The position numbers were made by a program, and so were the translations under genes. Below the pieces are notes generated by a model. That model was not told the DNA's origin. It worked only from the letters and a program-made list of their open reading frames with translations, and searched no databases. From Psammoneis japonica (lineage: Eukaryota), in NCBI GenBank assembly GCA_008632985.1, contig QPGO01000296.1:1-64000 (forward strand): a stretch of 64,000 nt of DNA, in the 5' to 3' direction. Positions 12,910 through 37,734 of the stretch are shown piece by piece. The number at the start of each line of letters is the position of its first letter. Position 1 is the first letter of the stretch.

Positions 12910-14075
12910 GCCCAGAAGAATGAACTGAAAGGAAGAAAAAGAAAAGAGAGAGAGGGAAAAGAAGGAAAGATGAGAAAAAGAGAAGGTGTTGCCAGTTGCC
13001 AGGTCATCATTTTGTGGTCCTTGGCTTGGCTTGTCTGCAAAGAAGCTTGTCAGTGACTCGAGGTGCCAGCACAGCCCGGGATGCCACAGTCTTGAGTGGC
13101 AGACAAGATGGGGGCTCTGTGTCTGTGCCCTGCTGTGGTTTGGGTGGACTGTTTCTTGCAGCCTGTCTCATTGTGACATTCCACCCTCTTGTTGCTGCAC
13201 AGCGCCAAGGACAGCAGGGGGCTTTGACACCCCACGGCTCTTTGCCCTCATTCAGGAGAGGACCTGTCAAACATGTTGGGAAACATGGAAAGCTCCTGAG
13301 TTCCTGATGGGACTTCAAATTCTTCATTGCAGCTGCACACATTCAAATTTTGGGCAAGAGCACCCAATGCGATGGGGCCAGCTGACTTGGCAAGACCTGG
13401 CTGTGTCTCTGTGGTGGTGCTTCTCAGCTCTCGTGTCTCTGGCCTTGAAACATGTGGTGTAAAGCACCCTGAGGAAAGTGCTTGCACACAGCATGCTGGC
13501 CCAATCCTCTCCCATCAGCCAGTGCCTTGTGGCGCAGTGCTCAGCTTGCTGGCTCCTCCTGATTGTGAGCTCCCTGGTGGTTTGGTGTCTCAAGTGTTCT
13601 TTTCTGTTTGTGTGACAGATGTGTGCTTGGGATCATTGCAGTCTCATGGGATGCTGTGTCTTGTCTCAAGCTCTGTGCTGGATGCAGCACTTTCTAGAGT
13701 GTGTGCCATCAGGAGCATCGCCCTCATCATTCTTGCTGCTTGTCAGAGTTGGGAGTGCCCAGCGCCACATGGGACAGGGGAGGAGATTGCGTGGAGGGCA
13801 GAAAGGAATCAAAGGCTGTGAAAAAAGAGATTGCATGAGATGTTACAGCTCAGTGTTTGGGTGGCCCACTGAGAGGGAGAAGAGCAGTGGTGGGTGCTGC
13901 CAAAGCAGTCACTTGCCAGGGTGCTCCAAATGAAGTCGGCGGAAAGGGAAGCAGGGGAGGTGAGGGCATGAAGAAAGGCAGAGTGGGAAGTGTCGGAGTT
14001 GTGGGGGTGGAGGGAGATAGCCAGGGAGGCTTGGACTGAGAACGGGCAGAAGGGAAGGAAGAGCTGAAAAGGAAG
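12910..14075. mobile_element. TpA-depleted repeat remnant between genes; the right part resembles the 3' end of the CRE-like element at ~55.2 kb
   Basis: Only about 4 TA dinucleotides in ~1.17 kb. TGGCCCACTGAGAGGGAGAAGAGCAGTGGTGGGTGCTGCCAAAGCA matches TGGCCCATTGGGAGGGGGGAAGAGCGGTGGGAGCTGCCAAAGCA at ~55220. Confidence 0.6.
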
Positions 14076-14184
14076 CTATGTAAGAAAATGCCGAGATCAC
14101 CCTGTGTGCGGCCGAGCTCGAAACTCTCTACTGGCCACTGCATCTACTACCTTTTGCTTCAGTAGCGAGCTTGTATTATGTCCT

Positions 14185-15807
14185 TTACTGTAAACTCTTA
14201 AAGAATCCCTGCCATTTTGGATGTTGCAATGTCTTCTCAACATTGACGGAGCAGAACTTTCCACTTTCAGTTGCTTCGGCAAACTGCCTTCGAATTTCAG
14301 ATTCTTCAGATTCGTATCGATCCGGCACCATTTCTTTTTCATATTCAAGAGTTTGATTCAACAGCCGTTCGCTCTGTTGCGGAGTGATACAATCCAGGGG
14401 GAAATCCGAGAGCTTAGAAAGGCCGAGCCTGTTCAAAGCATGAGACTCAACTGCATCTGTCGCATCCTTTCGTGTCATGTTTGTCTTTATCATACCCTTC
14501 TGATATGCCCCGACTGCCAACATATCGTAATGATGGCATTTCGATTCCGAAGGATTAAGGAATGTATCCTCCTTGGATTTCTGCTCGGTCAAATGCTGGC
14601 ACAGCCGTTCCGCTTCGGGCATCACTTGGCAGAAGAAAGAGGAAAGAAAGAGATGTTTGTACTCCTCTTGTCGCTTTTTATTGTGGCGTGCATGTCGAAC
14701 ACACGAATTTCGGAGTGAGGGAACCTTTCTTTCCAGCGTTTCGCCACCGCTAAAGGCAATAGAAAGGATCGTTTCACCATAAGTGTATCAAAGAAGGCCG
14801 AGAAGCTAGAGATAACTCTTCCTCCGTTGTCTGGCCAGTTGTCACGCGATTCTTTTCGATGATCTGGAACGTCAAAGCTGAATGCCTGGTGATACTTCGA
14901 AGGAACCCATTCATGTAATCGTCTCAACATTACAGCGAATAGAACAAGAAAAGAAGAAAAAGATTGGTAAAACGAACAAAACAGATGAGTGAGAATGATT
15001 GTGAAAATTGACTCGGATCAAAACGTGGTCTTCACTGCCGAAATTGCAACCAAGCTACACACATACCGGTAGGTATAAACAATCCGCACATTCCAGCCTT
15101 CCAGAATTGGAATCAGGCGATCCCAGAGGCTGTAGTCTTCGTTTTCTGCCTTTGCGCACACGTTCAGCATCTCTTCCGACATGAAGACGTTGTGCTTATT
15201 TTTCAAATGGCTCTCGATAATACCTTTAAACTCATTCCACTTGGATTGGCAAGCAGGCTCTATCCAATCTCGACAATTGCGTACCATTTCATGTAGGAGC
15301 TTTTCGGGGACATTTTGTTGGTTCCCAACAAAGTAGAAGTTATCTTTCTTCATCAACCCTGGATAGTTTCTTCCGGCCCACTGTATTGTGGTGGTACCTG
15401 TTTTTTGGAAAAAAAGGAAATGAAGTTTAAATGCACGCTGACACGAAGATTCAGATGGGTCGGATCAGATGCTCAGGATATTTTACCTGTCTTGGGGGGT
15501 CCTATGTGCAGCACAAACAATGGGGCGTCCTTGGGAGGAGGTGAGCTTATCTTTTTCAATGTGTTGTTTGCTTTCTTTGCCTTTCTTCTGCGACCTAGCT
15601 TCTTCTCTTCTGAGTCTTGCGTCGTTTTATAGAGCCATCATACCTCAGTTCTCGAGATGAGATGCTTGTAGTTTCAATCATTGCGGCTCGGTGCGTTCTT
15701 AACTGTCTCTGCAGGGATCGAATTTGCCTTATCTCTCCCAGAAAGGCGGAGTTGAAGAATGCGAGAACAAACGCAACACCGAGGCATATCTTCTCACCCT
15801 TCTTCAT
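14185..15807 (-). CDS. Sulfotransferase-like P-loop membrane/secreted protein; introns and frameshifts
   Basis: N-terminal TM segment; spliced motif LFVLHIGPPKTG/TTTIQ; SEE and VRIVYTYR..LHEWVPSKY.Q are typical of this family. Confidence 0.65.
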
Positions 15808-16129
15808 GCTTGTTACAACGCAATTGGTGCCGCGTACTGTAGCACAACCTTACAACAACCTGCGGTGGTTTCCAGGGTAGTGAATGGGCGTGTCACTTCG
15901 CTCCCCGTCCATTTTTTGTTGCTTCTTTATCCCATCTCGTATTGCTCTCTATCTCTCACCTTACTTCATCCTGATGACTGATGACCGTGCGTTTTGTGAC
16001 TCGAAATTCGAAATTTTTGAAGTCATTTGTCGGGAATGACTGTGATAATAAATAAAGCATCATGAAAATGTCGAATAGTCACAAAAAAGAAACCTTCCAA
16101 TCGAATCATTCGACTTAACCGACTTGCTT

Positions 16130-16445
16130 GTCCTACCTACTCTCTAGCTAGAGAGTAGATAGCTAGCTAGAGAGAGCTACTACGGTAGCTTACTTGTAGC
16201 TAGAGCTAGAGTAGAGAGTAGGCCCTACCTTTACACTGTAACCTTTAGTCGTAAGCTTACTGCGGTACCCTGATCTGAGATCCGACGCCGACAAAAACTC
16301 AAGCCCTCATGACCAGCTCTACTGTACTGTACCTAGCTCTACTAGCTCGAGTACCCTCTCTAGACTCTAGTAGCTAGCCCTACTCTCCCTGCTGTACTGT
16401 AGGGCCCTCTCTACTAGAGTAGAGCCCTACCATATGGCATTAGGC
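16130..16445. repeat. Low-complexity CTAG/TAC/GTAG-rich palindromic patch
   Basis: Dense CTAG, TAGAG and CTAC words; perfect 22-bp palindrome CTACTCTCTAGCTAGAGAGTAG at 16137-16158. Confidence 0.7.
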
Positions 16446-16664
16446 CCTCTTGTTTTTCCGATTCAAAAAAAAATAATGCATGTGGACTTCACCTACTAAA
16501 GTTCAACATTGTGCACTACGAAGTGTTTCATTATTTGGTAGCAATGAGAATGTAATAGAGCCGACTGAACATAACCTTGGACCGCTTTCTTCTAAAATAT
16601 TTACTATGCAGAGGCACGAGTTACTCGGCGAACACCGCGTCCGCCCGTGAGAAACTGTGGTAGA

Positions 16665-19600
16665 CTATTCGAAACATCCTCCACTCCCTTGGATTTCGCA
16701 GAAGACAGGTGCCAACATTTTAACTGTGTTGCTGCCGCCCTCCACCTGTGAATCGGGAGAAACTTTCCTTACGGATTGGTTTGTGTTGCTACCATCTTCC
16801 GTTGAGGGAACGACCTCATCGTGGATGTCTGAATCCCGCGACGCCTCCTTCGAGGCTTCGTCCTCAGATTTCTCTGTCGTATGAGTATAAGACTTCGGGG
16901 CGGCCTTTCGAAGTGGAGTACATCTGATTCTCTTTGTGGCGGGAGCCTCTTCGCCGATGTCATCTGCTCCATTCATAGCGCCCCTTGTTCCCTTCCCAGC
17001 AGATGCACCATTGGCATGGTTACCAGCCGCCAGCACTTCACTAGAGAAGTTTTCGCTTGACGGCACGCTAACGCCCGTCTCGTCAAGAGACTTGGTTACT
17101 TTAACGCGAGGACTTGTTCTCGTCATGGAATCTGTCGGGATGGGCTCTTCCTCACCCAATACGAAGGCAGCATCGATATTTCGTTCTCGTCCGCCGAGAA
17201 CGTACGACACGGCATAAACGATTGTGCCGTTGTCCCGACGGTCAACGTGCTTAACCCTGCCTACTCCTCCAGGCTTGTTAATTCCAGGCCAGGTACGAGA
17301 CTGAACTTCTACAACATCACCCACAACGAAGGGGCCCTGCTTTCTGCGGGTTTGCGGCGCATTGACAACACCACGTGGGTTCACATCACCATTGACCGAC
17401 GCGATTCTCTGCGGTGTCAAAGGCAAACGCTGTCGCTTTTGGGGTGGAGAACTGGTTTCTTGAACAACTTTTCGGGGGCGCCCACGTTTACGCTTCTGTG
17501 GATTCGCCGCTTCGTTCTGAAACGATTTCATACAACTCGACGGACGTGCCTTACGAGGCTTTCCGAGAGGCCAACCCCTTTTCTTTTTCAAAGGTTTTCC
17601 GACTGACACATCAGGTGGAGGAGCCGCGAGTTTGGTTTCACCTACGTCTGCATCTGCCTCTGCAACGATGGGCGAAGGTTTGACTTTCGGGGGGCGTCCT
17701 CTCTTTCGCTTGGGTGCAGGTAGCGGTTGGAGAGATTTTCCCAGTGGAAGACTGGGAGGAGCGGCGAGTCTGGCTACATCACTTTCCGGTTTGACTTTCG
17801 GGGGGCGTCCTCTCTTTCGCTTGAGTGCAGGTAGCGGTTGGATAGTTTCTCCTGGTGGAAGACTGATAGGAGCTGCGAGTCTGGCTCTATCACTTTCCGG
17901 TTTGACTTTAGGAGGGCGTCCTCGCTTTCGTTTGGGCGCATGTAGAGGTTGCGGAGCAGCGGAGAAAGCAGTAGCGTTGGTAGCGATTCGAGGCCTTCCG
18001 CGCCCCCTCTTAACAGCGGGAGCCACACTCAATCCCTGCAAGTGCGCCAGGACGTCCGCGCTTTCAAGGGAAGGGTCGTATCCCGCGCCACTCGTTTCGG
18101 GGATATCCCACTGCTCTTGATCAGCATCGACCGTACGTTTCATACTTCGAGCCTTCACTATTTCACAGAAACTGGATGATACATCCAATTCTTTACCCTC
18201 GGCTTCATCCACCAACATCCAAATCGGCCGTCCCTCAGCCTGGGGTTTGTCAGGGCCCCAGAGGCCAACGCGGCGCATCGGCGCGAGATGGCACCACTGC
18301 AAATCGGGTATATAGGTAAGCACATAATAGTAATCAAACAACTCCGATGCCGGGGTGCTATTGTAGTTGACAAGCTTGACCACCTTGTTGAAGAGACCAC
18401 CTTGAGATACGGAAGAGTCACTGAGGTCTGGATAAGCCTCGCGATACACAGCAAGTTCCGCTTCATAAGCCGTCTTGGCCTTTTGGTATGCCTCTCGCTC
18501 CTTGAGGTGCATCGCTTGATATTTCTGCTTATATCGTTCGTCGAGTTCCTGCCACTGCCGCGAAAGCACCTTGGTCAGCTCCGGCAACGGCTTTCCAGCC
18601 ATTGTTTCCTTGAAGAGGTGTCGATGATCTCGACAGAACAGCAAGTACCCGGATAGCGGTCGTTTCGGGCGGACCGGGGCAGTAACTACAGCCCTTGACG
18701 CTGCAGCCGTTGATGGGGCGGCGGCAGAATTGGACACCTTGCTCCCATTCATCGTTGCCGGTGTTGTCTGATAGGTGGAGTCCTTTGGTGGCTCATACTT
18801 TTCCTGAATGGAAACCGCAAGCGACTCTTCTACGGGTTTTCGCAATTTGGCTCTCGCCGCTTTCTTACGATTCAATTTCAAGGCCATCATGTAGCTTGGC
18901 TCGCTTGTTTCGAGAGTATCGGTAGGAAAAGTCCAGTGGCAATAGGGCTGATAAGCATCGTCGCTCACATGAAAATGAGACACCTTGATTCGTGTGCCGT
19001 CTTTGAGCCTTGAGTTTGATTGCAATTCCGGAAAACGTGCGCGGTTTCCAGCAATAACATCTTGCCAAGATACTTGAAACATTTTTGCAATCTTGCGTGG
19101 GGTGTCGTTTTCCTTGGCAATATACCAGGTGGGAGTATCGCCGTCGCAGTCATTCTTGCGCTTGGCTTGTTTGGTGGGAATAAAGAGCGAAGTACCCTTG
19201 ATAAGGCGGCTTCTTGGAGCAATATCAGGATACACGTATTGATTCAAAAAGATAATGTCCCACACATCGCAGTGAAACCGTTTTGCAAGATCCACAGGAT
19301 GCTCACCCTGTTTCTGCGTAACGTATGTGGTGACATCACTAGAAACCACTTCAGGTAACGGATCTTCCTTTTTCTCCTCGTCCTCTTCGTCTTGACGGCG
19401 CATTCTCTTCTCAAAGTCTAAATCTTCGGTAATACATCCGACCCTTACGAACCCAAGTGACTCGTAAAACGGCACGGAATTGTCTGTAGCTTGCAAAACA
19501 ACATAGTCATAGTTTCTAGACCCAGTTGAATTCATGCGTTCGAGTTTTTCAATAACTAAGGAGACCAAGGTCTGACAAAGACAACGGTATAAATGAGATC

Positions 19601-20217
19601 ACATAGCGCGAACGGGCCAAGGCATGCAATTCTGTGTCGCTCACCTTGCCACACCCCAACCCTCCTAGAAGCGATATTTCCGCAATGCGTGGCCACACAA
19701 TACCCTCATTCCAGGGATCTCCGCATCTCACAGTAGCTTGCATCGCTTCTGCCAGTGACCCGTCTGAATCATACGCACGTTCCTGATTAGCCATCTGCGC
19801 TGCTAGCGTTGGCTCGTCAAAGCTGAAGGCTGAATCATGAAGCGAGTCAAAGCAAAAGCTCTTCTGCCAATTGGTAAACGTGGTTACAGTGATGAATCCC
19901 TGTAAACGATCGTTATGCCTGACTAAGTACCCGAACAGCGGATCGTCAACGTCTATCCGATCTGCCATGTACTCGAGTGAAAGAGGCTTAGCGGCCGTAA
20001 ATTTGTCCTTCTTGCGCTTTTCTGCTCCTCTACGAACTGCTTCTTTGCATAGCAGCACCATTTCAGCCATACTTTCAAACAAATGGTCGCGGTCAGTCAC
20101 TTCAGAAATTACAGAGCCCTTCAAATCGCTCTGACATTTCGGCACAGTTCGAAAGTCATAAGCCGGCTGACGCAACGGCTTGGCTGCAAACCGCTTGGCA
20201 TTCAACTCCTTCGTCAT
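16665..20217 (-). CDS. Chromatin protein: GNAT acetyltransferase, two LysM-like domains, HMG box and multiple AT-hooks; intron 19572-19644
   Basis: LLGGLGCGK/TLV..VVLQATDNSVPFYESLGF (GNAT); YIAKENDTPRKIAKMFQVSWQDVIAGN (LysM); RPKRPLSGYLLFCRDHR..LSRQWQEL (HMG); repeated KRGRP. The start codon is uncertain. Confidence 0.85.
17680..17935 (-). repeat. In-frame ~102-bp tandem duplication encoding AT-hook units
   Basis: KRKRGRPPKVKP occurs three times at 34-aa spacing. Confidence 0.8.
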
Positions 20218-20714
20218 GACTACAACAACATAAACCAGTGCAACAAGGCGCAGACTTGTTTCCAATGCTCTTTGGTTGCCGTCGAAATCACAACGTCACC
20301 GCTGCAAAAGAGTGGGGCATGTTTGCAGCGAATTTCGCCAATCACTCGCGAGCCACGCTGCGTTTATTGACTATATACAACGTAAGGTTATATTTCGATT
20401 CGAATCATCCACACTTTCATTCACCCTTAAGTAAATGTCCGTTGAAGATTTGTGTATATAGTAGTTCTATAAAAATATATAAAGTTATTTATGGTATCAC
20501 GGAGTGGCGCGCCATCGTGCGTTGCGGTTTTGATTTGCTTTTGTCTGAACATCACAGATCAAGCAGCAACGCTCTGAACGAGACAAGCACATGATGCCCC
20601 GACCCCGACCCCCGACCCAGACGATGCATTGCGCAAGATCACATGGTGCATTGCAGGCAAACAAACAGACTCCTTCTGCATCTGCAGGGGTGCTGGAACA
20701 TCAGAGCGTGTGCT

Positions 20715-21103
20715 GACGCGTTCCAGGTCTAGGTGGGACCTCGTACTACTGAACTGTGACATCGATAGTTTTTTGAATCTCGTCGTATGTCGCGCACGTA
20801 GAATTCTACGTGATTTTTTGATATTTTGTGTCATTTTACGGTACACTTATTGAGCGATCCGTCCAAAAACTTTTGACATTTTTTGTTACAGCGCGATTCT
20901 ATAATGTCTTAAAAATCGCGTAGGGCAGGTGCATTTGCAAAAACGTCGAGTGGTAAGAGGCATAATTGTACCACAAACTTGGCCGTTTATTTGATGTTGA
21001 AGATAAATATATTCATTAATTAAATTCTCGTACTACGGAGCTCGCACGTAGAATTCTACGGGCCAAATGTCACACGGAGTCCCACCTGGGGCTGGAACGC
21101 GTC
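20715..21103 (+). mobile_element. MITE family 1, copy A (389 bp, nearly unmutated)
   Basis: TIR GACGCGTTCCAGnnnnAGGTGGGAC; 4-bp TSD TGCT (20711-14 and 21104-07); internal palindrome CACGTAGAATTCTACGTG. Confidence 0.85.
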
Positions 21104-22500
21104 TGCTGCAGCAGTGGTCGGGGGGGCCGTGCCTTTCTCACGCAATGGTTTTTGGATGCGTGCTCCAGACGCAGGTGAGCCGGATGAAAAACGGACCTTG
21201 TTGTCACGAGGTTTGACTCAAGAAAATTGCAATTCATTGTTTTTTCAGGCAAAATGCATCTGTGTGCCTGTGCAGGAATGCACTGGCAGCTGACAAGCTC
21301 CAAAAGCAAGTTGCCAAAAAGCTTCGCCCTGGCCACAACGACAACGAAGTGCGGCACACAGCTTCCGCTTGTTCAGCCATCCATGATGATGTCATGGTCA
21401 ACCAACCCCAACAGTCAACAACAACGGAAGCACCAGGCATCTGTGTGGTGCCACAGGGAGGCACCCTGTGGACGTGCTCCAGCCGCACGTGACCCAAATC
21501 GTGCACAAAAACGACATTTGCGCGATTTTTGTGCGGTCTCTGACTTGCGAACGGTTTTTCACCACCAAAAGTATAGATTTGTTCAAATTCGAATGTTTTG
21601 CAACACCAAACAAGACTCGTGTGAGTGTTGCAAAATCATTGTCACAGCGCCATCAATGTTCTTCATTGCGCTGAACGAATCGCAACACAACGGATGATTT
21701 TCGGCGAAATTTCTGCCGTCATTTGGATGTTAACTAAATGTGTCTTCCTACAATGCTTCTTCGTAAATTTTCCACCTACAAAGAAATCTCAGCATTGAGG
21801 CTGCTGACGCATGATCAGTGTTGAGTTTGCCGAGGAAGTTTGTGATGCATGTCCCATGAGGACTTTAACACCCCACAAAAAACTGTTTAATTCTTCACAA
21901 TTTTTCATGCTCTAGATGCCCACAAAAGCCAATCCGCTTGAGCATTTTATGTGAAAATGCTCCATGCACCAACAGATGCACAATTTGTGTTCAAAATCGA
22001 TTGTCGTTTTGTGTGTCACCTGGGACTGGAACACGTCTGTGGTTGGTTGTTGAGCCACACCCCAAGAGACACAACTCAGGGCAAAGTTGTTTCCTCGGGG
22101 GTTGGGCAAAGATGAGTGGAGAGCTTTTCAATGTGTTCTTGTGGCAAACTCATGCTTGAAATCAGCCATCAGAGCTTCATTTCCCAGTGATGAAAATCTT
22201 GCAGAAGTGCGCAGAACAATTGTTTTTGTCAGACTCAACAAGAAGAAAAAACTTCATCTTAGAATCACCCTTTGTTTTGGCCATTTGCACTGTTGGAAAG
22301 AGCTTTTTCTCCACATTTCAGTCATGTGTTTGTTGCAAAAAGTTGAAAAAATGCATTGAGGCAATCACAGAACAAAGGTGTGAAGGCACAACCATTTGAT
22401 TTTTGGCAAAGATTTCACATGCTCGTGGCTGGTTGACGACAAGCCCACAACCCCCACACAACGCAAATCAGTGAATGACTTTGAGCCAAAGCAAGCTGAA

Positions 22501-22617
22501 GAATGGCCAACAAAATCCCCCAATTGAAGTTTCTGCTTCAGCACAAAGACAGCCAAATGGCCAACTCCCCCCCAACTGAAGTTTCCACTTTGGCACAAAG
22601 AAAGCCAAATGGCCAAC
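22501..22617. repeat. ~53-bp diverged tandem repeat (about 2 units)
   Basis: AATGGCCAAC recurs at 22502, 22556 and 22608 with similar spacers. Confidence 0.65.
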
Positions 22618-23247
22618 GTTGCAGAGTTTTTGGGCACAAGCAAAATCAAATTGGCAAAACAGCCAGGATGTCAAACATGAAATCACCACTCCATTTCTGC
22701 GCCAGCCAGGCAACTGCTGCAGCATTCAGACGCTCATTTCAAAGTGTCAACTGGTCTTCTCTCTCTTTGCTTTCAATGCTTGTGACAATTTTTCAGATCT
22801 CTGCGTGGGCACATCCAAAATGTGCAATGCACACCCTTTGCAACATGGACAAATGAGCCCATCTGGAATTTGCAGTCTCCTTTCAATCCACATGAGCACA
22901 TGCCAAAAACTTGTGGACAGAACAAAAGGCCCTTGAGCACACAAAATGAGAAGAGAGCAGATGGCACCAAACTTGTTTTGAACCTTGGGCTCTCAAGTGG
23001 CATCGTTTTGCTGCTCTGCAACTGGCCGGAAGCTTGAGTGTTTTTTTTGTGACTTGCAGCTTGAGGCTTGCTGGCACATGAGCACACGCAATGTTGCCTT
23101 TAGAGCCTGCTGCTTGCTGGAGCTGAGGAGATGTGGACAGCTGTCTGGGTGCCCAGGCTTTGTCCATCAGATGCTCAAACTCGCGGTTGTTTTCTCTTGT
23201 GCTGTGGCCACTTGGCTTCTTCCATCAAGAAAGTCCACAGCAGCCCA

Positions 23248-23487
23248 GACGCGTTCCAGGTCTAGGTGGGACCTCGCACTGCTGAACTGTGACATCGATA
23301 GTTTTTTGAATCACGTCGTATGTCGCGCACGTAGATTTCTACGTGATTTTTTTGACATTTTGTGTCATTTTACGGTACACTTATTGAGCGATCCGTCCAA
23401 CAACTTTTGACATTTTTTGTTACAGCGCGATTCTATAATGTCTTAAGAATCGCGTAGGGCAGGTGCATTTGCAAAAACGTCGAGTGG
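23248..23487 (+). mobile_element. MITE family 1, copy B (left part, runs into gap)
   Basis: Near-identical to 20715-20953. A related right TIR ends at 24327, after the gap. Confidence 0.85.
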
Positions 23488-23989
23488 NNNNNNNNNNNNN
23501 NNNNNNNNNNNNNNNNNNNNNNNNNNNNNNNNNNNNNNNNNNNNNNNNNNNNNNNNNNNNNNNNNNNNNNNNNNNNNNNNNNNNNNNNNNNNNNNNNNNN
23601 NNNNNNNNNNNNNNNNNNNNNNNNNNNNNNNNNNNNNNNNNNNNNNNNNNNNNNNNNNNNNNNNNNNNNNNNNNNNNNNNNNNNNNNNNNNNNNNNNNNN
23701 NNNNNNNNNNNNNNNNNNNNNNNNNNNNNNNNNNNNNNNNNNNNNNNNNNNNNNNNNNNNNNNNNNNNNNNNNNNNNNNNNNNNNNNNNNNNNNNNNNNN
23801 NNNNNNNNNNNNNNNNNNNNNNNNNNNNNNNNNNNNNNNNNNNNNNNNNNNNNNNNNNNNNNNNNNNNNNNNNNNNNNNNNNNNNNNNNNNNNNNNNNNN
23901 NNNNNNNNNNNNNNNNNNNNNNNNNNNNNNNNNNNNNNNNNNNNNNNNNNNNNNNNNNNNNNNNNNNNNNNNNNNNNNNNNNNNNNNNN
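23488..23989. other. Assembly gap
   Basis: N run. Confidence 1.
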
Positions 23990-25779
23990 GCGAGCTCCGC
24001 AGCAAAATCACACGGCAATTAAAATGTCAATGATCGCCAACAGAAAATGAGGCAATTTTGCGAACGCACAAACTCGCACATGATTGAAGCACATCATTTT
24101 TTGCTTGGCCAGTTGCATTCTTCAGACATTGAAGAATGCAGCTGGCGCATTGTTGTTTCTATGAATTTGTTGTGCAAAACGTCTGGGGCTTCGCAAAACA
24201 GCGAGTCTGGATAATTTTTTTTAAATGTCACACGTAGAAATCTACGCACAAAACATGCGACGGATGACAAAAATTGTTGTTGTCACACGTCAGTGCTGCG
24301 AGCTCCCACCCAGGGCTGGAATGCGTCCACAACGTTCGCCAAGCGACCACCAAGTCAACCTGCCATTTCTCACCAAATCGCTTTCGCACCCTCAGAATCA
24401 CTGTTTCAGACAGCCCCTTTGAAGTGTTGCATCCGCCATCATCTCATTGGGTGGAATGCTGTGAGGGGCCATCTCGAACAACAACATGGTTGAGATGTTA
24501 AAAACAATGTCGACACCTGACCAACAAACATGCCGTTTCGCACCATGTCGCTTTCGCACACTCAGGATCAATGTGAAAAGATGTGCATTTGATGCCATCA
24601 TGTCCGCAGTCATCGAATCAGGCGAGGGGCTCCGAGCTGCAATTTTTGGCAGCAGTTTCATCAAGCAATTTTGAAATGTCTGCGCATGACCTCATGTCTT
24701 GTCTGAACATCACACCGTCATCCAAATGGCACCTTCACGAGAAACAGTTTCGTTGCATGCTGGAAACAAAGACCACAGAGACTCAATCTATCAGCAAACA
24801 ACTTGCTGTCATGATGGAAGCTCTGAGAAAAGGATTTTTGGGCTCTTGGACTCTGAGATGTTGAGAGCGATCCATCCCGAGTTCACGACAAGCAACAAGC
24901 ATTCCAACACTGCGTTTTTTGGCCATGTCAACAGGAAGAGCACCGCCAAGAGAGGCATGTTGTGGAGAGCAATGGGTGGTTGGACATGGTTGGAGAAACA
25001 ACGGTGCTGCAGCAGCAGTCATGGCGTTTGATGAACAAGGACAAGCAGCGACCGAGGAGGACAAGGTTTGGACATGCAAGCGCTGGCATGACATTCACAA
25101 AGTGGGTGCAGACATTGTGTGTGATCCCAATGCATTGGCAATTGGCACCGGCATGGAGGAACACGCCAGCTGCAAGTCGACTTCATTGACGCAACAAAGA
25201 CCATCAAGGAACGGTGTCCGCACGCAAAGGTCATCGGTGGCAGTTTGAACCTTTTGTTTGGATTCCGAGGAGGAATGAAAATCCGCGAATCAGCTCATGC
25301 GGTGTTCTCAAATGATGCAATCCTTGAATCTGGAATGGATTTTGGTGTCATGAATGCGAAGGAAATGCTTGCTGTCAATGAATTGGATGACGACACGAGG
25401 GTGCCATGCGAGAATCTTGCACTCAACAAGACCGAGGATGAGACAGACGAGATGCCAAAGCAAACAGAGCACAAAAGAGCATGCATTGATGCCAGAAAGA
25501 AGGGCTTGCCTCTGCCTTGGAAGCCCCATGGCAAACCTGCAAACAAGCCATGCCTTGCACTCTCTTGTGACAAAGTCATCTCCAAACCTGCCATCGAACC
25601 GCCTCTGCTGATGGCTGCAAAAAATCATGTCCTGAACAGACAAGTGGAAAGAACAAAATGGCAGAGCTCGTTGTGCTTTGAAATGAGAACTTGGTTCCAC
25701 CACAAAATGGGCGTGCATTGGCACTTGGCGGATTTTTACACGGTGAAGTGCGGCAAAAGAGAGAAAGATGCTGTTGATC

Positions 25780-26170
25780 ATTCTGCAACTGGAGAGACAG
25801 CTGAAGTGGTGGATGCATTGTCAGAGATGTGATTGATTCTGCTTTTGATGTTGGTCACTTTTGGTGTCATGATGGCCGCAGTGTCGCTCCAAAACTGCAA
25901 ACGAGACATCAAGGATTTTCAGTCGTGATTGCATGGCGAAGCATGGCAAAAGCAACAAAAGCGCTGTTTCACGTTCTTTCCAACTGCAGAGTCAGGTGAC
26001 TTGGTGGATGCATTGTCAGAGACGCAAGAGCCTCTGCTTTTGATGTTGGCCAGCATTGGCATGACAAAAGTTGCAGCAACACTCCAAAGCTGCAAACGAG
26101 CAACGGCAGGATTTTCGAAAAATCGAAATGTTTTTCAGTTGTGATTGCATGGCAAAGCACGGGAAAATGG
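25780..26170. repeat. ~195-bp diverged direct duplication
   Basis: GGTGGATGCATTGTCAGAGA..CTGCTTTTGATGTTGG..CTGCAAACGAG..GTGATTGCATGGC occurs twice. Confidence 0.7.
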
Positions 26171-26341
26171 TGGTCACTTCATCAATCTCATTGACGACGA
26201 ATGCAAGGCAAATGAAAAAGTTGCCCCCCACTTTAAGACCGCCGCAACACCCTCCATCGACTGAGGTGACTCTCGTTTCGATCCAAGAAAATTCGTCTCT
26301 GCGTGATTTCTGCAGCGTCCCCTCCCACAGCTGCAGCCAAG

Positions 26342-26732
26342 GACGCGCTCCAGCCCTGGGTGGGACTCCGTGTGACATTGGGCCCGCAGAATTCTGCGTG
26401 TGAGCTCCGCGGCACGAGAATTTAATCAATGGATGTGTTTGTCTTCAACATCAAATGAATGGCCAAGTTTGTGGTGCAATTGTGCCTCTTGCCACTCAGC
26501 GTTTTTGCAACTTCGCCTGCCCTGCGCGATTCTCAAGACATTGTAGAATTGCGCTGCAACAAAAAATGTCAAAAGTTGTTGGACGGATCGCTCAACAAGT
26601 GCACCGTAAAATGACACAAAATGTCAAAAAAAATCACGTAGAAATCTGCGTGCGCGACATACGACGAGACTCAAAAAACTGTCGATGTCACAGTTCAGCA
26701 GTGCGAGGTCCCACCCAGACCTGGAACGCATC
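26342..26732 (-). mobile_element. MITE family 1, copy C (inverted, heavily TpA-converted)
   Basis: Full-length reverse-complement match to copy A; 4-bp TSD CAAG on both sides. Confidence 0.9.
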
Positions 26733-27404
26733 CAAGACTGTTTGCTGAGCTGCCAGCTGAGATGTCAAACTTGAGGTTGTGAGCTCCCAGAGCTGCAAGT
26801 CACAGGGCAGAGCATGTTTCTGGAACTGGCAGCACAATGCAGAGCCCTTCCTCAGCTTTCCGGGGTGCGCCCAGACCTCCAGAACACTGGCTGGCCTGTC
26901 CCAGCTCCAGGTGATCTGCTTTTCATTGTGCTGGATTTTCTGCACAGCCAGTTTTCAGCGCCAGACATTTTTGTCTCCACCCGGCAGAGCTCGCACTTTT
27001 TGGCTTTTTGTGAACATCAATTGTTTCGATGATGCAATGCACTCATGATGTCAATGCTCATCTGCAACAACTGAGGTGTGTGTTGCGATGCAGGAAGAAT
27101 CGTGTCAGTTGGCATTCAATGTTTTTCTGGCAATGTGTGGAACAATGCTGCTGACTTCTACGAACATGTGCCATCCACCCAACACCACCCAACACACGCA
27201 CCAACTGTGACGCAGCAGGCCCACACCACTGCTGTCGCCACTCCACAACCCCCTCTTTGCCCTTGTGGTCACATGGAACCGTCTGCTCCTTTTGTTTCAA
27301 AGGTGTGACATTGTCGCCACAATGCGGTTGCGGCTCTAAAGAGTTGCTGTGTCATTGCGGACAATGCCATCTCTTCACATTCTCTTGTTTTGAACTCGGC
27401 AAGG

Positions 27405-29055
27405 TCCTTGAAAGAACTGTTTGTTTTCCTTCCTTGAAACAACGTGTTTGATTCCTTGAAAAGACATGTTTGTTTTCCTTAAAATGACGTGTTTGTTTTC
27501 CATGAAACAACATGATTGTTTTCCTTGAAACGACGTGTTTGTCATGTTTGTTTTCCTTGAAAAGACGTGTTTGTTTTCCTTCCTTGAAACAACATGATTG
27601 TTTTCCTTGAAACAACATGTTTGTTTTCCTTGAAAAAACGTGTTTGTTTTCCTTGAAAAGACATGTTTGTTTTCTTTGCAATTTGAGTGGACATGTTTGT
27701 TTTCCTTGAAAGAACTTGTTTGTTTTCCTTCCTTGAAACAACACGTTTGTTTTCCTTAAAAAGACATGTTTGTTCTCCTTGAAACGACATGTTTGTTTTC
27801 CTTGAAAAGACGTGTTTGTTTTCCTTGAAAAGACACGCTTGTTTTCCTTGAAAAAACATGTTTGTTTCCATTGAAACCACTTGTTTGTTTTCCTTGAAAG
27901 AACATGTTTGTTTTCCTTGAAACAACATGGTTGCTTTCCTTGAAATGACGTGTTTGTTCATCTTGAAACAATGTGTTTGTTTTCCTTGAAATGACTTGTT
28001 TGTTTTCCTTGAAACAACATGTTTGTTTTCCTTCCTTGAAAAGGAAATGTTTGTTTTCCTTGAAACGACATGTTTGTTTTCCTTCAAACGACATGTTTGT
28101 TTTCCTTGAAATGACATGTTTGTTTTCCTTGAAACAACATGATTGTTTTCCTTGAAACAACATGTTTGTTGTCCTTGAAAGCACTTGTTTGTTTTCCTTC
28201 CTTGAAATGACACATTTCATTTTCTTTGAAAAGACATGTTTGTTTTCCTTGAAACGACATGTTTGTTTTCCTTGAAAGAACATGTTTGTTTTCCTTGAAA
28301 TGACGTGTTTGTTTTCCTTGAAAGAACATGTTTGTTTTCCTTGAAACAGCTTGTTTGTTTTCCTTGAAACGACATGTTTGTTTTCTTTGAAACAACATGT
28401 TTGTTTTCCCTGAAACAACATGTTTGTTTTCCTTGAAGAGACATGTTTGTTTTCCTTGCAATTTAAAAAGACATGTTTGTTTTCCTTGAAAGAACTTGTT
28501 TGTTTTCCTTCCTTGAAACAACACGTTTGTTTTCCTTGAAAAGACGTGTTTGTTTTCCTTGAAATGACGTGTTTGTTTTCCTTGAAATGACGTGTTTGTT
28601 TTCCTTCAAACAACATGTTTGTTTTCCTTGCAATTTAAAAAGACATGTTCGTTTTCCTTGAAAGAACTTGTTTGTTTTCCTTGAAACAACATGTTTGTTT
28701 CACTTGAAACAACATGTTTGTTTTCCTTGAAATGACATGTTTGTTTTCCTTGAAAAGACATGTTTCTTTTCCTTGAAACAATGTGTTTGTTTTTCTTGAA
28801 ACAACATGTTTGTTTTCTTTGAAACAACATGTTTGTTTTCCCTGAAACAACATGTTTGTTTTCCTTGAAGAGAATGTTTGTTTTCCTTGAAAAGATATGT
28901 TTGTTTTCCATGAAACTGCTTCATTGTTTTCCTTGAAACCACTTGTTTGTTTTTCTTGAAAGAACCTGTTTGCTTTCCTTGAAAAGTCACGCTTGCTTTC
29001 CTTGAAAAGACATGTTTGCTTTCCTTGAAAAGACATGTTTGTTTTCCTTGAAAAG
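27405..29055 (+). repeat. 23-bp satellite array 1 (~70 units), consensus CCTTGAAA[CA/TG/CG/AG]ACATGTTTGTTTT
   Basis: Tandem periodicity is directly visible; the ORF track cycles every 23 aa (3 units). Confidence 0.95.
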
Positions 29056-29127
29056 AAAAAAAAACCGTGCCCATGCACAGATTGCCACTGCAAAGTGCGC
29101 CAGATGGGGTTGTCACACTTTTGACCA

Positions 29128-30240
29128 GTGCGCTCAACGCCATCAGATGGCTCAAACGACTTGTCCTGGCTCAATGAGCCGGTGGCCAAGACAAAGAAGG
29201 TCTCTGACTTTCTCAAGGGTGTCTCCGACCCTGGGTTGGAGACTGGTGAGAGTGCAGTGGACGGAGATCCAACAAAGCCAGCAGATTTCAAAGCATGCCA
29301 GCAGCATGTGAAGACTCTGGCAGAGAATGCCAAGAACCGCAATGCTGGTGCTCACGGAGTCACATCCGTCCAATGCTGCAACAACCGGCACAGAAACCCT
29401 GGTGGCAAGCACCAACCTAAAAAGGACAAGCCCAGGATCTGGGCAGGCCATTGCCCCATTGAAGAGTGGAGTGCTCTTGGCCGTCCTGAGCAAGAGCAAG
29501 TTGAGAAGCTCCACAAGGCCAAGAAAGCCGAGAAGAAACACAAAGCCTCAGCTGCATCCTCGGAGGCTGAGTCAGTCAATGCCGACACTCGTGCTGTGAA
29601 AAAGGTGGCTGTTGCCAAGCCTCAACCTGCTGATGAACAAAAGGACTCCAAAGAGTCAGGTGGGCTGCCTGCTGCCAATGCAGGCACGCAGTTTAGACGC
29701 AGTGCACATGAGAAACCTCAGAAGGAGGAGTGAACAGTTGCGCCAGCACCAAAAGGCATGGAACCAACTGTTGCTGCACCTGCTGGCACTGTGCATTCAT
29801 CCAGGCGATTCCCAACAGACACACGTGTCTCTTTGTCATCTGCTGGACATTCAGATGGTGAAGCAACCAACAACTTGGACTCGCACGCTGATGCATGTGC
29901 TGTTGGGTCCAATTTTGTCATGTGCTCTGATGTCGACTGCACTGTTGCAGCACATCCTTGCTCCAAAGAGTGCGCGCCAATGAGGAATGTTCCCATTTGC
30001 ATGACTGCTGCCATGTGGGTTGATCAAACCAATGGACAGCCACACCTGCTGCCAGTCCATGAGGCTGTGTTTTTTGGGGACAGAATGACTGACACCCTGC
30101 TGTCCACGACACCCCTCGCCAGTTTGATCCCAACAGCACACACTCTGTTGTTTTCCTTGACTCAAAAATCTGGGTGCCTTTGCACATGCGAGGTGTTGCT
30201 TTGGTCTTTGACCCACATGATCCAACTCAGAAGGATCTGG
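29128..30240 (+). pseudogene. Copia (diatom CoDi-type) gag-protease fragment
   Basis: KKVSDFLKGVSDP..DFKACQQH (gag); LDSHADACAVGSN..HPCSKECAPMRNVPI..EAVFFGDRM (protease region with Y->C/H). Confidence 0.75.
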
Positions 30241-30279
30241 AGAACCTCCCCCGGCTGGAACTCGCATCACCCCTCACTG

Positions 30280-31864
30280 TGCTTTGAAGTGGGGATGCTT
30301 GCGCAACCGCTGGAAAGACATTGTCAACGTGATGATCTTTAAAGAACCAGGGAACAACAAAGTCCATCGACTGCAGGTCACAAACATGTGTGAAGCAGAC
30401 CATCAAATCATCACGAGTGTGAAATGGCAAGAATTGGCACAGCAAATGGAGCACCACTGGATGTGCAATCCCGGCATTTGTGGATGCCGCTCATTCCTTT
30501 CTGCCCAGACTCCTGTGTTTCTTGAGAACTTGACATCAGAAATGTCGTGAGCTTCTCGAAAGACAGCGCCAATGAGTGATGATGATTGTGCCTCTTGCTT
30601 TGACAGAAACATTCCCGTGCTGGTCGGACTTTGCTCTTGGAGAACAGCGTGCACTCACAAGTTGTTGAAGTTGACATGGGCACTCTGTGTCATGCCAGGC
30701 ACTGGCTGCAAACCCTGCTGGGCTCAATTCAGCTGAGTTGTTCCCACACAGAAGATTTGCCTCTGTGCGGCACAGGGCAAGGTGGTGGAAATTCCCCATG
30801 GCATTGGAACACCCTCTGCAACCGTCTTTTTGACATTTTTGATGCCAGAGCGATTGGAGCTCATTTTGAAACCCCTGACGGCCAATTTTACATCCGAGTC
30901 TTTAACCGAGGATGCGCAGATGATGCGTCCAAACAAGCCAATGACTGCCGAGCAAGTCCTCTGCCTTCGGCGTTTGATCTGTCCTTTTCTTTGCAACAGG
31001 AGAGTCAACTCCCAAGTCCCACTCTGGCACTCAACTCTCAGACTCAGTTGAAGAAACTCCAACACAAGAGTGACACTGGCTGCAGCTCTTTTCCTTTGAT
31101 CTTGTCCACTTGATCATGCGGGAACATGGAGATGCTGCTGTGCATGTCATCTCTCCTCAATGACCTGTGTTCTCCCTGACTCAACCTTTCTCCCTGAAGA
31201 GTTGCTCACCACTCAACAGAAAGCAATGCGGGTCACATTTGCCAAATGTGGGTGCAACTGAAGCACAAAAAAACTCATCTTGTGTGGTCCACAAGCTCTT
31301 GGCAGCAATGGTTTTTGATCGCCAGACATCAAACAAGGAGTTGCTCAATTGCAAATGCTGCTCAAGCATTCCAGAGGTGTCACACATCTTCATCTGGGAG
31401 AGGATCAACCCCACAAATTGCTGCACATTGCAGTCTCATGGATCTAGCTGAACTTGGGGACAGGCGTGAGCTTCTTGTGGGGTGCAGATGCTGTTCTCCC
31501 GCACATGGAATCATGTTGGTTTGCATCCGTTTGTGCGTTCTTGCACGGGATTCAAGGGAAAGTTTGCCTGACACACTCTGGAGTCCTCCCTCTCCAATGA
31601 GACAACAACCAGCACATCATGGATGCTGCACTCCAGCCCCAACTCTTTTCTCAGCGTGAGGTCCAATGGACCAATTGTTGTTTGCATCTGCAGGTGTTGT
31701 CCTTGTCTGATGTTGCTCTGGCAGATGACTTGACATTGGATGCTGCAAAGATGGCAGGAGATCCTTTGCTCCAGAGTGGTGCCAGAACTATGAACAACAT
31801 TGAGCAGCAGAAACCAGAGACAAGAGCCTGGGCAGCGTGGAGAAAAGTTCTGCGCTTTCTTGTG
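30280..31864 (+). pseudogene. Non-LTR retrotransposon RT fragment (diatom LINE, possibly Ambal-like)
   Basis: RWKDIVNVMIFKEPGNNKVHRL..CEADH, DDDCASCFDR, LCGTGQGGGNSP and GCADD (from YADD). Confidence 0.8.
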
Positions 31865-32445
31865 ATGTCATTTCAAGGAAAACAAACATGTTGTTTCAAG
31901 GAAAACAAACGTGTTGTTTCATGGAAAACAAACGTGTTGTTTCAAGGAAAACAAACATGTCATTTCAAGGAAAACAAACATGTCATTTCAAGGAAAACAA
32001 ACATGTTGTTTCAAGGAAAACAAATGTGTTGTTTCGCGGAAAACAAACGTGTTGTTTCACAGAAAACAAACATGCCATTTCAAGAAAAACAAACATGTCA
32101 TTTCAAGGAAAAAAACATGTCATTTCAAGGAAACAAACGTGTCATTTCAAGGAAGGAAAACAAACAAGTTCTTTCAAGGAAAACAAAGATGTCTTTGTGA
32201 CGAAAACAAACATGTCTTTTCAAGGAAAACAAACATGTTGTTTTGAAGGAAAACAAATGAGTTCTTGCAAGGAAAACAAACAAGTTGTTGCAAACAAAAG
32301 AAACAAGTTGTTGCAAGGAAAACAAACATGTCTTTTCAAGGAAAACAAACATGTTGTTTCAAGGAAAACAAACATGTTGTTTCACGGAAAACAAACAAGT
32401 TGTTGCAAGGAAAACAAACATGTCGCTTCAAGGAAAACAAACATG
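31865..32445 (-). repeat. 23-bp satellite array 2 (~25 units, inverted orientation)
   Basis: AAAACAAACATGTxxTTTCAAGG units. Confidence 0.95.
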
Positions 32446-32559
32446 CAAAAAAGAAAAAAGAGAAAATCTGTTGGCAGCGCTGCCAGCGAAACATGTTGTT
32501 CACAAACACATGCCTCTGACACAAAGAACACTTTTCCACGATGCTGTGTTGCTGAGATT

Positions 32560-33120
32560 GGCACCATGTTGTGCTTGCAGCCTGCTCTTGGTTTGCTTGG
32601 AGAGAGAAGGCAGATGCAATGTTCCCAACAAATGTGCTGAGGATGGCTTTGCTTTTGGAATTTGGTTGGACAACCAATGGCCACAAAACACAAGCTCGGC
32701 AAGCTCAACATTGAAAAAGAAGAAAAAGTTGAGGAGGCTGGTGTTGAGTGGCTCATGTGGGAAAATCAATTGGGCACAATGCCCTCTCTTCTCAAGCAAC
32801 TCACAAAATGGGAGGGGACTTTGTAACATGCCAAGGGGCCACAAAGAGGATGGGGAGAACCTTGGAAAATGGTCAAGTGACCAATGGGGTGCCACAAGGA
32901 AAAGGAAACTTGATGCTTCTCAACAGGAATGACAGAAGAAGGCCAGAGCCAAGTGGGACATTCTTGCTGAGCATCAGGAGACTGTGTTTTCTCTTCTCAA
33001 ACAGTTTGTGGTGCATGAGGGAAGCTGCAAAGTGCCCCATTGTCACACTGAAAATGGAGAGAGACTTGGACATTGGTTGGACATGCAAAAGCAAGCATGG
33101 AAGGCTGGAAGACTGAAGAA
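32560..33120 (+). pseudogene. Degenerate helicase-associated (HA) domain repeats
   Basis: GRCNVPNKCAEDGFAFGIWLDNQ, CNMPRGHKEDGENLGKWSSDQ and GSCKVPHCHTENGERLGHWLDMQK match the HA pattern G.C.VP..Y....LG.W...QR. Confidence 0.7.
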
Positions 33121-33443
33121 CAGCCACACAAACCGCAAAGACTCACAACCACTCAGAACGCTGCACACTGCCCTGGCGAGTGCAGGAGGTTCTCAACAAC
33201 CCAACAGGCAAAGAAGTTGCCACTTGGCTGGCTGTTGAGTCCCTTCTCCGCGCACACATTTGGGCGTGTGTTGTGCGCAGCATTGTCACACAGCATTTGT
33301 CCAACTCTCCCTCTCGTCGCAGGATGGGTTGTCACCATGTGGCGCATCCGCACGGAGGACTCACGAATTTGGCCATGCACTCCCCATGTTGGGCAGGATG
33401 GGCCAGCGCCATGTGGCGCATCCGGCCAAGGGAGGAGTGGGCT

Positions 33444-33828
33444 NNNNNNNNNNNNNNNNNNNNNNNNNNNNNNNNNNNNNNNNNNNNNNNNNNNNNNNNN
33501 NNNNNNNNNNNNNNNNNNNNNNNNNNNNNNNNNNNNNNNNNNNNNNNNNNNNNNNNNNNNNNNNNNNNNNNNNNNNNNNNNNNNNNNNNNNNNNNNNNNN
33601 NNNNNNNNNNNNNNNNNNNNNNNNNNNNNNNNNNNNNNNNNNNNNNNNNNNNNNNNNNNNNNNNNNNNNNNNNNNNNNNNNNNNNNNNNNNNNNNNNNNN
33701 NNNNNNNNNNNNNNNNNNNNNNNNNNNNNNNNNNNNNNNNNNNNNNNNNNNNNNNNNNNNNNNNNNNNNNNNNNNNNNNNNNNNNNNNNNNNNNNNNNNN
33801 NNNNNNNNNNNNNNNNNNNNNNNNNNNN
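33444..33828. other. Assembly gap
   Basis: N run. Confidence 1.
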
Positions 33829-34925: not shown

Positions 34926-35404
34926 TCTGGGGTTGCATGAAAAATCGAAATTTTCATTTTCCCCTGTTTTCACGTGTTTTCAAACATTTTGACTGAAGAA
35001 AAGTCGTCGTGCAGAGAAAGGGGGGCACAACTGATGTCGGTCGTCCATCATCTCGAGCATGCAATGGATGGCACCACGTGAGTGCGAGTCAGAGAGGGGG
35101 CAGCCAAATGTCGCGCCTTGTGACGTGCGCATCAGAAGCTCACTGCTCGCACCCCTGACGTCAGTGCTCTCGTCTCAATCGCTGTCGGTCTCGCTCATCA
35201 TTCGACCCACCAACGAGCTGACGTGCTGGGTGGGAGACATCATTGTTGTCTTCACGTCTGTTGATTCAGCAGCAGCCTCAGTCATTGTAACTTTTAACGC
35301 TGAGACCGAACTGCTGGACAAAGTTTTGCTGTTTTGCTCATGCATTGCGAAGCCCAACGAAAATTTTTTGCAGACAAGACAAACTGGCTCTCTTGCAGCT
35401 ATGA

Positions 35405-36386: not shown

Positions 36387-36587
36387 TTGTATGGTGAGTA
36401 ATATAGACGTGTGTTGCGCGTATGATGTTTTATGTTATATGCTAACAAGATTGCTGCGGCGCCAGTTCCGTGCAGCAGTGTTTTTGTTGCCGTATCATAG
36501 GTGGATTGATGGTCGGGTAGGGTTCTCATTCGTTTCCAACGTCTAAAAACAATGCTCTGATGTTAGGCCTTTTAGAGAGATTCCCTT

Positions 36588-37068: not shown

Positions 37069-37279
37069 ATGCAAGGGAATCTTGAGCTCCAATACTTCAC
37101 AATAGTCCCCCCCGATAGGCCTTTTTTTGGTTTTGGCGGTTGTAGCAATTTCAAATTTGCCGGGACTTGTATGTGTGGGATTGACTGTCCCACATAGAGA
37201 GTTGAGACGGTCGTGAACAATTCAAATCGGAGTTCGGGATTCGATGCGAACCTTGCCGTAGTGTGCCGAGTAAGCAACA

Positions 37280-37643: not shown

Positions 37644-37734
37644 AAGTGTCGCCACATGCTGCACTTTGTCAAATGAAACAGAATGCACTCTCATGTTGCT
37701 CTTTTTTTCTCTTGACTGTTGTCCACTTGTTTCA

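Follow-up and report, generated by a model that had tools for sequence, protein, structure and literature searches.

To our knowledge, no eukaryotic genome defence acting by mutation of A:T pairs was known before 2026. The closest system to have been described is that of Bigelowiella natans, for which a preprint by Mettrop et al. (10.64898/2026.01.13.699255) reported that integrated DNA of giant viruses and virophages undergoes hypermutation at TpA. According to the main text of this preprint, 231 of the 302 nuclear point mutations from 15 mutation-accumulation lines locate to two integrated viral regions and 230 of these 231 are A>G/T>C changes, all of the latter at TpA, whereby only some of the lines were affected and the process was uneven in time and between lines. 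As further stated there, 124 clusters of windows poor in TpA and rich in CpA and TpG were identified, TpA-poor coding sequences were found to be enriched in DDE-endonuclease and reverse-transcriptase domains, and a homologue of ADAT2 was proposed as the agent. The words 'trinucleotide', 'context' and 'flanking' are absent from the main text of the preprint, and its supplement may cover the sequence context. A literature search found the process described in this preprint only and returned nothing for diatoms. Here, a stretch of 64,000 nt from Psammoneis japonica (assembly GCA_008632985.1, contig QPGO01000296.1, positions 1 to 64,000), hereafter the window, is compared with this and other systems. 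A preliminary description of the window had read three copies of a miniature inverted-repeat transposable element (MITE) as a time series of TpA conversion, which was taken to be cumulative and recurrent. The analysis reported here revealed transitions that occurred in place at TpA, on both strands, with a preference for a 3' pyrimidine and within a sharply bounded domain. It is very probable that TpA to CpA/TpG hypermutation acting in place swept a repeat domain of at least 40 kb, with T-A-Y (Y, pyrimidine; R, purine) as preferred target and with the repeat copies differing by their exposure.

The depletion of TA is regional, as a low-TA stretch with a sharp edge lies beside normal DNA. In kb 1-20.5 of the window, the gene-bearing part, the observed/expected ratio of TA is 0.45-1.0 (mostly 0.45-0.76) and that of CpG is near 1, with the exception of an island at 12.95-14.0 kb, whereas beyond 20.5 kb most 1-kb bins up to the window end have TA ratios of 0.01-0.15, along with CpG ratios of 0.17-0.85 and CA/TG ratios of approximately 1.5-1.9. 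The bins with higher TA within this domain are those holding young inserts, those with assembly gaps and the one with the 5' long terminal repeat (LTR) of a copia retrotransposon, copia 1 (0.24); in the repeats, the TA ratio is 0.01-0.1. The edge of the domain at about position 20500 is marked by 21 TA in 20251-20500 followed by none in the next 214 nt, and the TA-rich DNA to its left is presumed to be a promoter region. Copia elements, MITEs and satellites are affected, and so are a fragment of a host-type peptidase and DNA that carries no annotation. For quantification, kb 21-35 and 38.7-64 were taken as the depleted part and the gene-bearing stretch as the normal part, which revealed 4.3 versus 40.6 TA per kb, 25.0 versus 58.0 CpG per kb and 207.0 versus 139.3 CA+TG per kb. 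The excess of CA+TG (67.7 per kb) matches the deficits of TA (36.3 per kb) and CpG (33.0 per kb), which sum up to 69.3 per kb. The G+C content is the same in both parts (0.482 in the depleted and 0.485 in the normal part), because the decay of CpG offsets the change at TpA.

The MITE is a short (approximately 389 nt), noncoding element of high copy number with imperfect terminal inverted repeats (TIRs) and 4-bp target-site duplications (TSDs), the latter being read from the sequence at both of the two complete copies, A and C (Table 1). Its TIR motif occurs seven times in the window as against 0.23 expected occurrences. Copies A, B and C were aligned with MAFFT, whereby the TA counts given in the preliminary description proved correct: copy A holds 29 TA, copy B, which is truncated by an assembly gap, has retained 13 of its 16 alignable ones and copy C has kept 5, with 23 sites turned into CA or TG and one into CG. 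The alignment of A with B covers 239 positions and shows 7 differences, three of these being TA in A and CA or TG in B. Between A and C, 43 substitutions over 389 aligned positions were identified, of which 25 sit at the 24 converted TA sites of A. The differences outside of TA sites had been put at about a dozen, several of them CpG transitions; the CpG transitions were confirmed (4), but the total amounts to 18. Copy C has lost 24 of 29 TA (83%) but only about 4 of 28 CpG (~14%), which makes the CpG loss in the domain look like a separate process, presumably the decay of 5-methylcytosine. Only 214 nt separate copy A from the edge of the TA-poor domain, and the copy is TA-intact between flanks devoid of TA, in agreement with the earlier proposal that it inserted after its surroundings had been purged. 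Copy B and a PIF/Harbinger-like transposon are likewise TA-rich within purged DNA and hence arrived late, too. Two relatives of the MITE were absent from the preliminary description, namely copy D, which belongs to a related but diverged subfamily (~75% identity to copy A across the terminal ~98 nt), and a lone TIR-like remnant. Copy D was considered as an outgroup for the TA sites and dropped, as it is itself purged.

A view on the whole family was provided by the public run X1, which holds 87% of the sampled words of a 9.9-kb query stretch (13000-22900). In this run, 2,619 contigs were placed on copy A at an identity of at least 80%, with a summed depth of up to ~440,000; 364 of them are at least 99% identical to copy A, 734 are 95-99%, 1,038 are 90-95% and 483 are less than 90% identical, and 33 contigs part from copy A immediately 3' of position 21103. 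Metagenome contigs scanned for the exact pattern of the MITE gave no matches. Among the 40 variants listed out of 43, 28 are T>C or A>G changes at a TpA of copy A, which is to say that all but three of the 31 listed A>G/T>C variants fall at such a site. The listed variants hit 19 of the 29 TA sites, 9 of them with both outcomes in different contigs, and none of the 40 generates a TA. By subtraction, the three further variants are one A>G and two G>A.

The direction of the change was derived from coding sequences and from the LTRs. The reverse transcriptase (RT) frames of the two copia elements of the window were aligned with 22 homologues, which yielded 17 columns with Tyr in at least 60% of the homologues. 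At these columns, RT1 possesses Cys seven times, His six times, a single Tyr and three gaps, and RT2 has seven Cys, six His, one Tyr, one Phe, one Leu and one gap, while control residues of RT2 were found to be conserved (Phe 13/17, His 13/14, Trp 7/8, Gln 16/17). Both copies read C-V-D-D at the position of the canonical Y-x-DD motif of RT. The same holds for the fragment of an S9 peptidase, which at the nine aligned Tyr of PDB entry 10eq has four Cys, three His, two Phe and no Tyr. Tyr codons are TAY and hence T-A-Y targets, so that their wiping out is the expected consequence of such a process. With seven changes to Cys and six to His in each RT there is no coding-strand bias, and the outcome tends to follow the preceding base in the expected direction, His being found after a purine in 8 of 13 cases and Cys after a pyrimidine in 13 of 17, small as these numbers are. 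The LTRs of copia 1, which were the same sequence when the element inserted, now differ at 21 of 358 positions, 13 of them at TA sites. Nine sites are TA in the 5' LTR and CA or TG in the 3' LTR while the reverse was found at none, and the remaining differences comprise two sites discordant as CA versus TG, four CpG transitions and four others. Thus two LTRs of the same age have lost 2 of 17 and 11 of 17 TA, respectively (Fisher p=0.004), which identifies the process as patchy and not clock-like. None of the TA sites of these LTRs was RTAY at insertion, implying that the source lineage had already been exposed earlier. Comparison of copia 1 with copia 2 (66% identity over 3,231 aligned positions) revealed 481 adjacent double mismatches; CA opposed to TG accounts for 84 of them and the next class for 21. 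Such a discordance results when each copy has independently converted an ancestral TA. TA is the ancestral state and was converted to CA or TG in place, repeatedly and independently; the census, the Tyr codons, the LTR pair and the copia pair agree in this respect with the recurrent process postulated earlier. In 80 environmental relatives of the copia element, the median TA observed/expected ratio is 0.63 and the minimum 0.35; as these relatives keep TA, its near-absence is not a trait of the element lineage.

Considering the above, the strict time series, in which copies A, B and C represent successive stages of a steady, clock-like decay in place, is rather unlikely. It accords with the fall in TA from A via B to C, with copy C carrying also the most changes outside of TA sites, and with TA loss rising together with CpG loss across the elements of the window, where a rough series leads from the young inserts via the LTRs and copy C to the copia interiors and the background. 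In this broad sense, the process may be called cumulative, as had been suggested. However, the three conversions of copy B (20744 T>C, 20748 A>G and 20822 T>C) are the same changes as those present in C, and the two T>C changes are not among the family variants at 5% or more in the census of run X1, so that the three may have been inherited from a partly converted source copy instead of being acquired in place. Moreover, the state of B is that of C at six of the seven differences between A and B, and at positions 20803, 20867 and 20913 it is copy A whose state is the rarer one (2-12% of the family depth), which points to these minority states marking a subfamily and not an age. Five odd states of copy A had been tried as private, age-giving mutations and were rejected on the ground that they are common to 2-12% of the family depth; copy B is without any private change outside of TA sites that could date it. 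Together with the unequal losses in the same-age LTRs, these findings speak against ordering the three copies in time. Conversions shared identically among TA-poor copies had been named as a sign against a recurrent process, and B and C indeed share them. Yet the preference for T-A-Y fixes the outcome at many sites, which lets independent copies converge on the same change, and hence sharing of conversions does not argue against recurrence.

The preference itself was identified by classing the two adenines of each TA site by their 3' neighbour. Sites of the type RTAY, in which both adenines precede a pyrimidine, count 5 in the depleted and 244 in the normal part (~1% survival per kb), sites with a single target count 69 and 429 (~8%), and YTAR sites, in which neither adenine is a target, count 94 and 117 (~41%); for RTAY versus YTAR, depleted versus normal, a Fisher p of 1e-31 was obtained. 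Concordantly, the conversions in copy C affect 20 of 33 T-A-Y but 5 of 25 T-A-R (p=0.003), with T-A-G converted in 2 of 11 cases, and within the family a listed variant is found at 11 of 14 T-A-T, 12 of 19 T-A-C, 5 of 14 T-A-A and none of 11 T-A-G. The preferred target is the adenine of T-A-Y or, equivalently, the thymine of R-T-A on the other strand.

The tRNA adenosine deaminases target A34 following U33 and, in tRNA-Arg, preceding C, and early TadA-derived editors prefer YAC. The chemistry underlying the conversions is most likely the deamination of adenine to inosine in DNA, for which a TadA/ADAT-like enzyme would be the agent, as was proposed for B. natans. The context found here, with its obligatory 5' T and favoured 3' pyrimidine, is compatible with TadA and ADAT2-3, T-A-C being a favoured site, and it is set apart from them by T-A-T being hit at least as often as T-A-C. 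TadA/ADAT2 is listed in a review table (PMC10661471) as 'A-to-I, RNA, DNA?, 5'ACG'; any natural activity of such enzymes on double-stranded DNA of the chromosome would be putative. Since R-T-A equals T-A-Y on the opposite strand, the context data fit damage to thymine just as well, namely a base-modifying enzyme that would act at R-T-A in silenced chromatin by JBP/TET-like hydroxylation of T, the resulting 5-hydroxymethyl- or 5-formyluracil then mispairing with G. Modified thymines are concentrated at TpA in dinoflagellates, and 5-formyluracil mispairs with G. This alternative is nonetheless regarded as improbable, given that the invariant 5' T suits the U33-A34 geometry of tRNA adenosine deaminases. 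Furthermore, the only study of the process proposes, in its main text, an adenine deaminase with ADAT2 as candidate (10.64898/2026.01.13.699255).

As with the deaminases that edit mobile elements in animals, namely APOBEC3 on cDNA of retroelements and ADAR on double-stranded RNA, clustered transitions with a fixed 5' neighbour disable invading sequences. APOBEC, however, gives C>T/G>A, while ADAR edits RNA and, according to the same table (PMC10661471), prefers 5'UAG (ADAR1/2), whereas T-A-G is disfavoured here; unlike for both, the targets here include DNA transposons, satellites and LTRs after their integration. An ADAR-like A-to-I editing of double-stranded RNA, fixed via reverse transcription of retroelement transcripts, would account for A-to-G changes with a 5' U/T and for retroelements being the most heavily purged recognisable sequences. 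It is nevertheless very unlikely, being contradicted for the parts other than retroelements, as copy C of the MITE, the satellites, the host gene fragment and the DNA between elements were purged as well. In addition, the divergence of the LTRs postdates integration, the counterpart of the ADAR-preferred UAG is among the least converted contexts both in the family and in copy C, and the Tyr codons of each RT were lost without coding-strand bias.

With repeat-induced point mutation (RIP) of ascomycete fungi, the process shares dense transitions at one dinucleotide which ruin the coding capacity of mobile elements and leave a compositional scar. In RIP, however, C:G is changed to T:A, with C-to-T at CpA and an excess of TpA in repeats, whereas here A:T is changed to G:C and TA is destroyed, i.e., the direction is reversed, and the G+C content is unchanged. 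That CpA/TpG is nonetheless ancestral and that copies A and B gained TA in a RIP-like manner by C-to-T at CpA is hardly credible; the pair of A and C by itself gives no direction, but the nine TA sites with both CA and TG in the family and the lack of any listed variant making TA contradict it, as do the conserved Tyr codons that are now Cys or His codons, the 84 CA/TG discordant sites between the copia copies and the TA-free state of flanks that look non-repeated.

The process of B. natans, as reported in the main text of the preprint, comes closest, since the changes are nearly all A>G/T>C, fall at TpA, are regional and leave a footprint poor in TpA and rich in CpA and TpG. In contrast to B. 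natans, transposons, satellites and a host gene fragment are affected here within a single contiguous domain of 40 kb or more, and TA is down to ~10% of normal, whereas the viral region there retains 3.3% TpA. The T-A-Y context was identified here, and a de novo rate was measured there only. New in the present work are the T-A-Y target, the action after insertion, the patchiness and the mass balance with CA/TG, while the kind of process is already contained in one preprint.

Hypermutation in place at TpA, preferring T-A-Y, thus remains the reading that is very probably correct for this domain. It assumes a local process that would make A:T to G:C transitions at TpA of chromosomal DNA, whereby RTAY sites would vanish first and YTAR sites last. 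Copy C would have been present in the domain while most of the purge took place, whereas copies A and B and the Harbinger-like element would have entered DNA that was already purged and would hardly have been touched. Exposure is suggested to build up over generations of copies, to be passed on through transposition and to be patchy at a scale below 1 kb, so that TA content would be a rough measure of exposure but not a clock. Several points weigh against this reading or narrow it. Its evidence base is one 64-kb window and a contig census, and the family frequencies of this census are sums of contig depth, not copy counts. Run X1 may be the assembly's own sample, which would make it a census of copies and not an independent confirmation. 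The survival ratios presuppose that the TA contexts of the domain were originally those of the gene-bearing part, and targeting of the whole domain as well as targeting triggered by repeats fits the data. Sequence as such is equally compatible with adenine or thymine as the damaged base, and the high frequency of hits at T-A-T is unlike a strict, TadA-like A-C-G preference. Finally, the relative pace of TA and CpG loss is not constant, copy C having mostly lost TA while the LTR pair shows similar shares.

The features of the window are compiled in Table 1.

Table 1. Features of the window, with positions counted from its first letter; expected TA numbers of flanking DNA refer to the TA density of the gene-bearing part
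Feature	Position	Strand	Characteristics	TA/kb	CpG/kb
Gene-bearing part	kb 1-20.5		PPDK_N, GST+WW, HMG-box/LysM protein		
TA-poor island	12951-14000		within gene-bearing part		
LysM/HMG-box open reading frame	16665-19568	-	967 aa, single exon		
Left flank of copy A, domain edge	20501-20714		TA 0 vs 8.7 expected		
TSD of copy A	20711-20714 and 21104-21107		TGCT		
MITE copy A	20715-21103	+	389 nt, 29 TA, 28 CpG, TA-intact	74.6	72.0
Right flank of copy A	21101-21500		TA 0 vs 16.2 expected		
Between copies A and B	21104-23247		TA-purged; 22001-23247 has 2 TA vs 50.6 expected		
First depleted block	21104-34928		CpG-poor, CA/TG-rich, includes 23-bp satellite arrays		
Lone TIR-like remnant	22013-22031	-	TIR with 3 mismatches, in the DNA separating copies A and B		
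MITE copy B	23248-23487	+	first 240 nt only, 13 TA, 19 CpG	54.2	79.2
N gap	23488-23989		remainder of copy B lost		
Copy D	23990-24327	-	related, diverged MITE subfamily, TA-poor (6 TA)		
Left of copy C	24336-26344		TA 4 vs 81.6 expected		
TSD of copy C	26338-26341 and 26733-26736		CAAG		
MITE copy C	26342-26732	-	391 nt, 5 TA, 25 CpG	12.8	63.9
23-bp satellite arrays	27405-29053, 31871-32445 (inverted), 33829-34924		24.9 to 63.9 copies, 81-85% matches, TA-free		
PIF/Harbinger-like DNA transposon	34929-38722		3.8 kb, 42-nt TIRs 95% complementary	40.0	49.3
DDE_Tnp_4 open reading frame of Harbinger-like element	35405-35971	-	E=1.9e-9		
Second depleted block	38723-64000		continues to window end		
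Copia 1	44316-49702	+	complete, degenerate copia-type LTR retrotransposon (RVT_2, gag_pre-integrs), 5-bp TSD CCACT		
Copia 1, 5' LTR	44316-44673		358 nt, 15 TA	41.9	19.6
Copia 1, 3' LTR	49345-49702		358 nt, 6 TA, LTRs 94% identical	16.8	14.0
S9 peptidase fragment	50376-51413	+	C-terminal catalytic domain, Peptidase_S9; PDB 10eq E=2.1e-72		
Purine-rich strand	55000-57000		GC skew +0.42 to +0.45, AT skew +0.31 to +0.36		
Copia 2	58615-62300	-	RVT_2, gag_pre-integrs, SH3_retrovirus	4.3	
Copia interiors				4.3	about 30
Domain background				4.3	25.0

The polyprotein frame of copia 1 is open for 570 codons, though nearly all of its Tyr codons were lost. Further long open frames without family match are found in the domain, and since TAA and TAG are impossible in TA-free DNA, such frames are expected by chance; a Pfam search with 16 further long open reading frames (ORFs) of the domain returned only families already seen and hits below threshold. 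The S9 peptidase fragment adjoins the 3' LTR of copia 1 on its outer side. Its closest relative, PDB 10eq, is a plant chloroplast glutamyl endopeptidase, and the fragment is of host type. The N-terminal part of the peptidase was sought on either side of copia 1, where the ORFs 43488-44072 and 49694-50311 are without a PDB match, so that a pseudogene fragment is presumed. Internal 11-bp repeats at ~36565-37090 and an N gap lie within the Harbinger-like element, which has satellite DNA on one side and the purged domain on the other and is likely young and possibly active. Within 125 satellite monomers, the dinucleotide that varies most reads AG in 29, CA in 28, TG in 23, CG in 17, GA in 10 and TA in none, which fits a lost TA but was set aside as too mixed to serve as evidence. 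Between copia 1 and copia 2, a strongly purine-rich strand without TA was observed, for which no family match and no tandem structure beyond a 27-bp doublet were found. Within the gene-bearing part, the 1-kb island has a TA observed/expected ratio of 0.06, a CpG ratio of 0.18 and purine-rich flanks; it may be an old purged insert, and neither a Pfam match nor transposon ends or other transposon features were found in it. The same part encodes a protein that pairs a LysM domain with an HMG box, which is an unusual combination.

The origin of the window was approached by its GST+WW protein, for which the best match in a collection of 5.8 billion proteins amounts to 58% and none exceeds 59% identity. 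A diatom protein ranks first among the named relatives (57%), and Bacillariophyta is the type assigned to the nearest atlas cluster. Judged by its proteins, which look diatom-like, the window represents a second lineage besides B. natans, with the signature brought almost to completion, and the process is therefore probably widespread among marine algae. The footprint is also present in other public records, as among 120 copia relatives two, P0122 (NCBI source) and P0232 (JGI source), contain less than 1% Tyr along with raised His and Cys.

Any mechanism to be suggested must explain the T-A-Y/R-T-A target, the action after insertion, the lack of strand bias, the sharp edges and the independence from CpG decay. 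For the annotation of genomes, TA-purged DNA means that long false ORFs and Tyr-free 'proteins' arise where TAA/TAG stops and Tyr codons are lacking, by which gene callers and homology searches are misled. TA content split by context could in turn date the exposure of transposons, and an adenine deaminase that naturally works on double-stranded DNA, if real, would be relevant to base editing. The function of the process is presumably to defend the genome against mobile DNA, the host gene fragment being collateral damage. A more far-reaching proposal, put forward here as tentative and rather doubtful, is that of a chromatin-directed enzyme system for adenine deamination at T-A-Y of double-stranded chromosomal DNA which would act as a heritable defence, form the mirror image of RIP, be shared by distant algae (a diatom-like stramenopile and a chlorarachniophyte) and occur in bursts that may differ from one LTR of an element to the other. 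If true, such a defence would erase Tyr codons and TAA/TAG stops from mobile elements.

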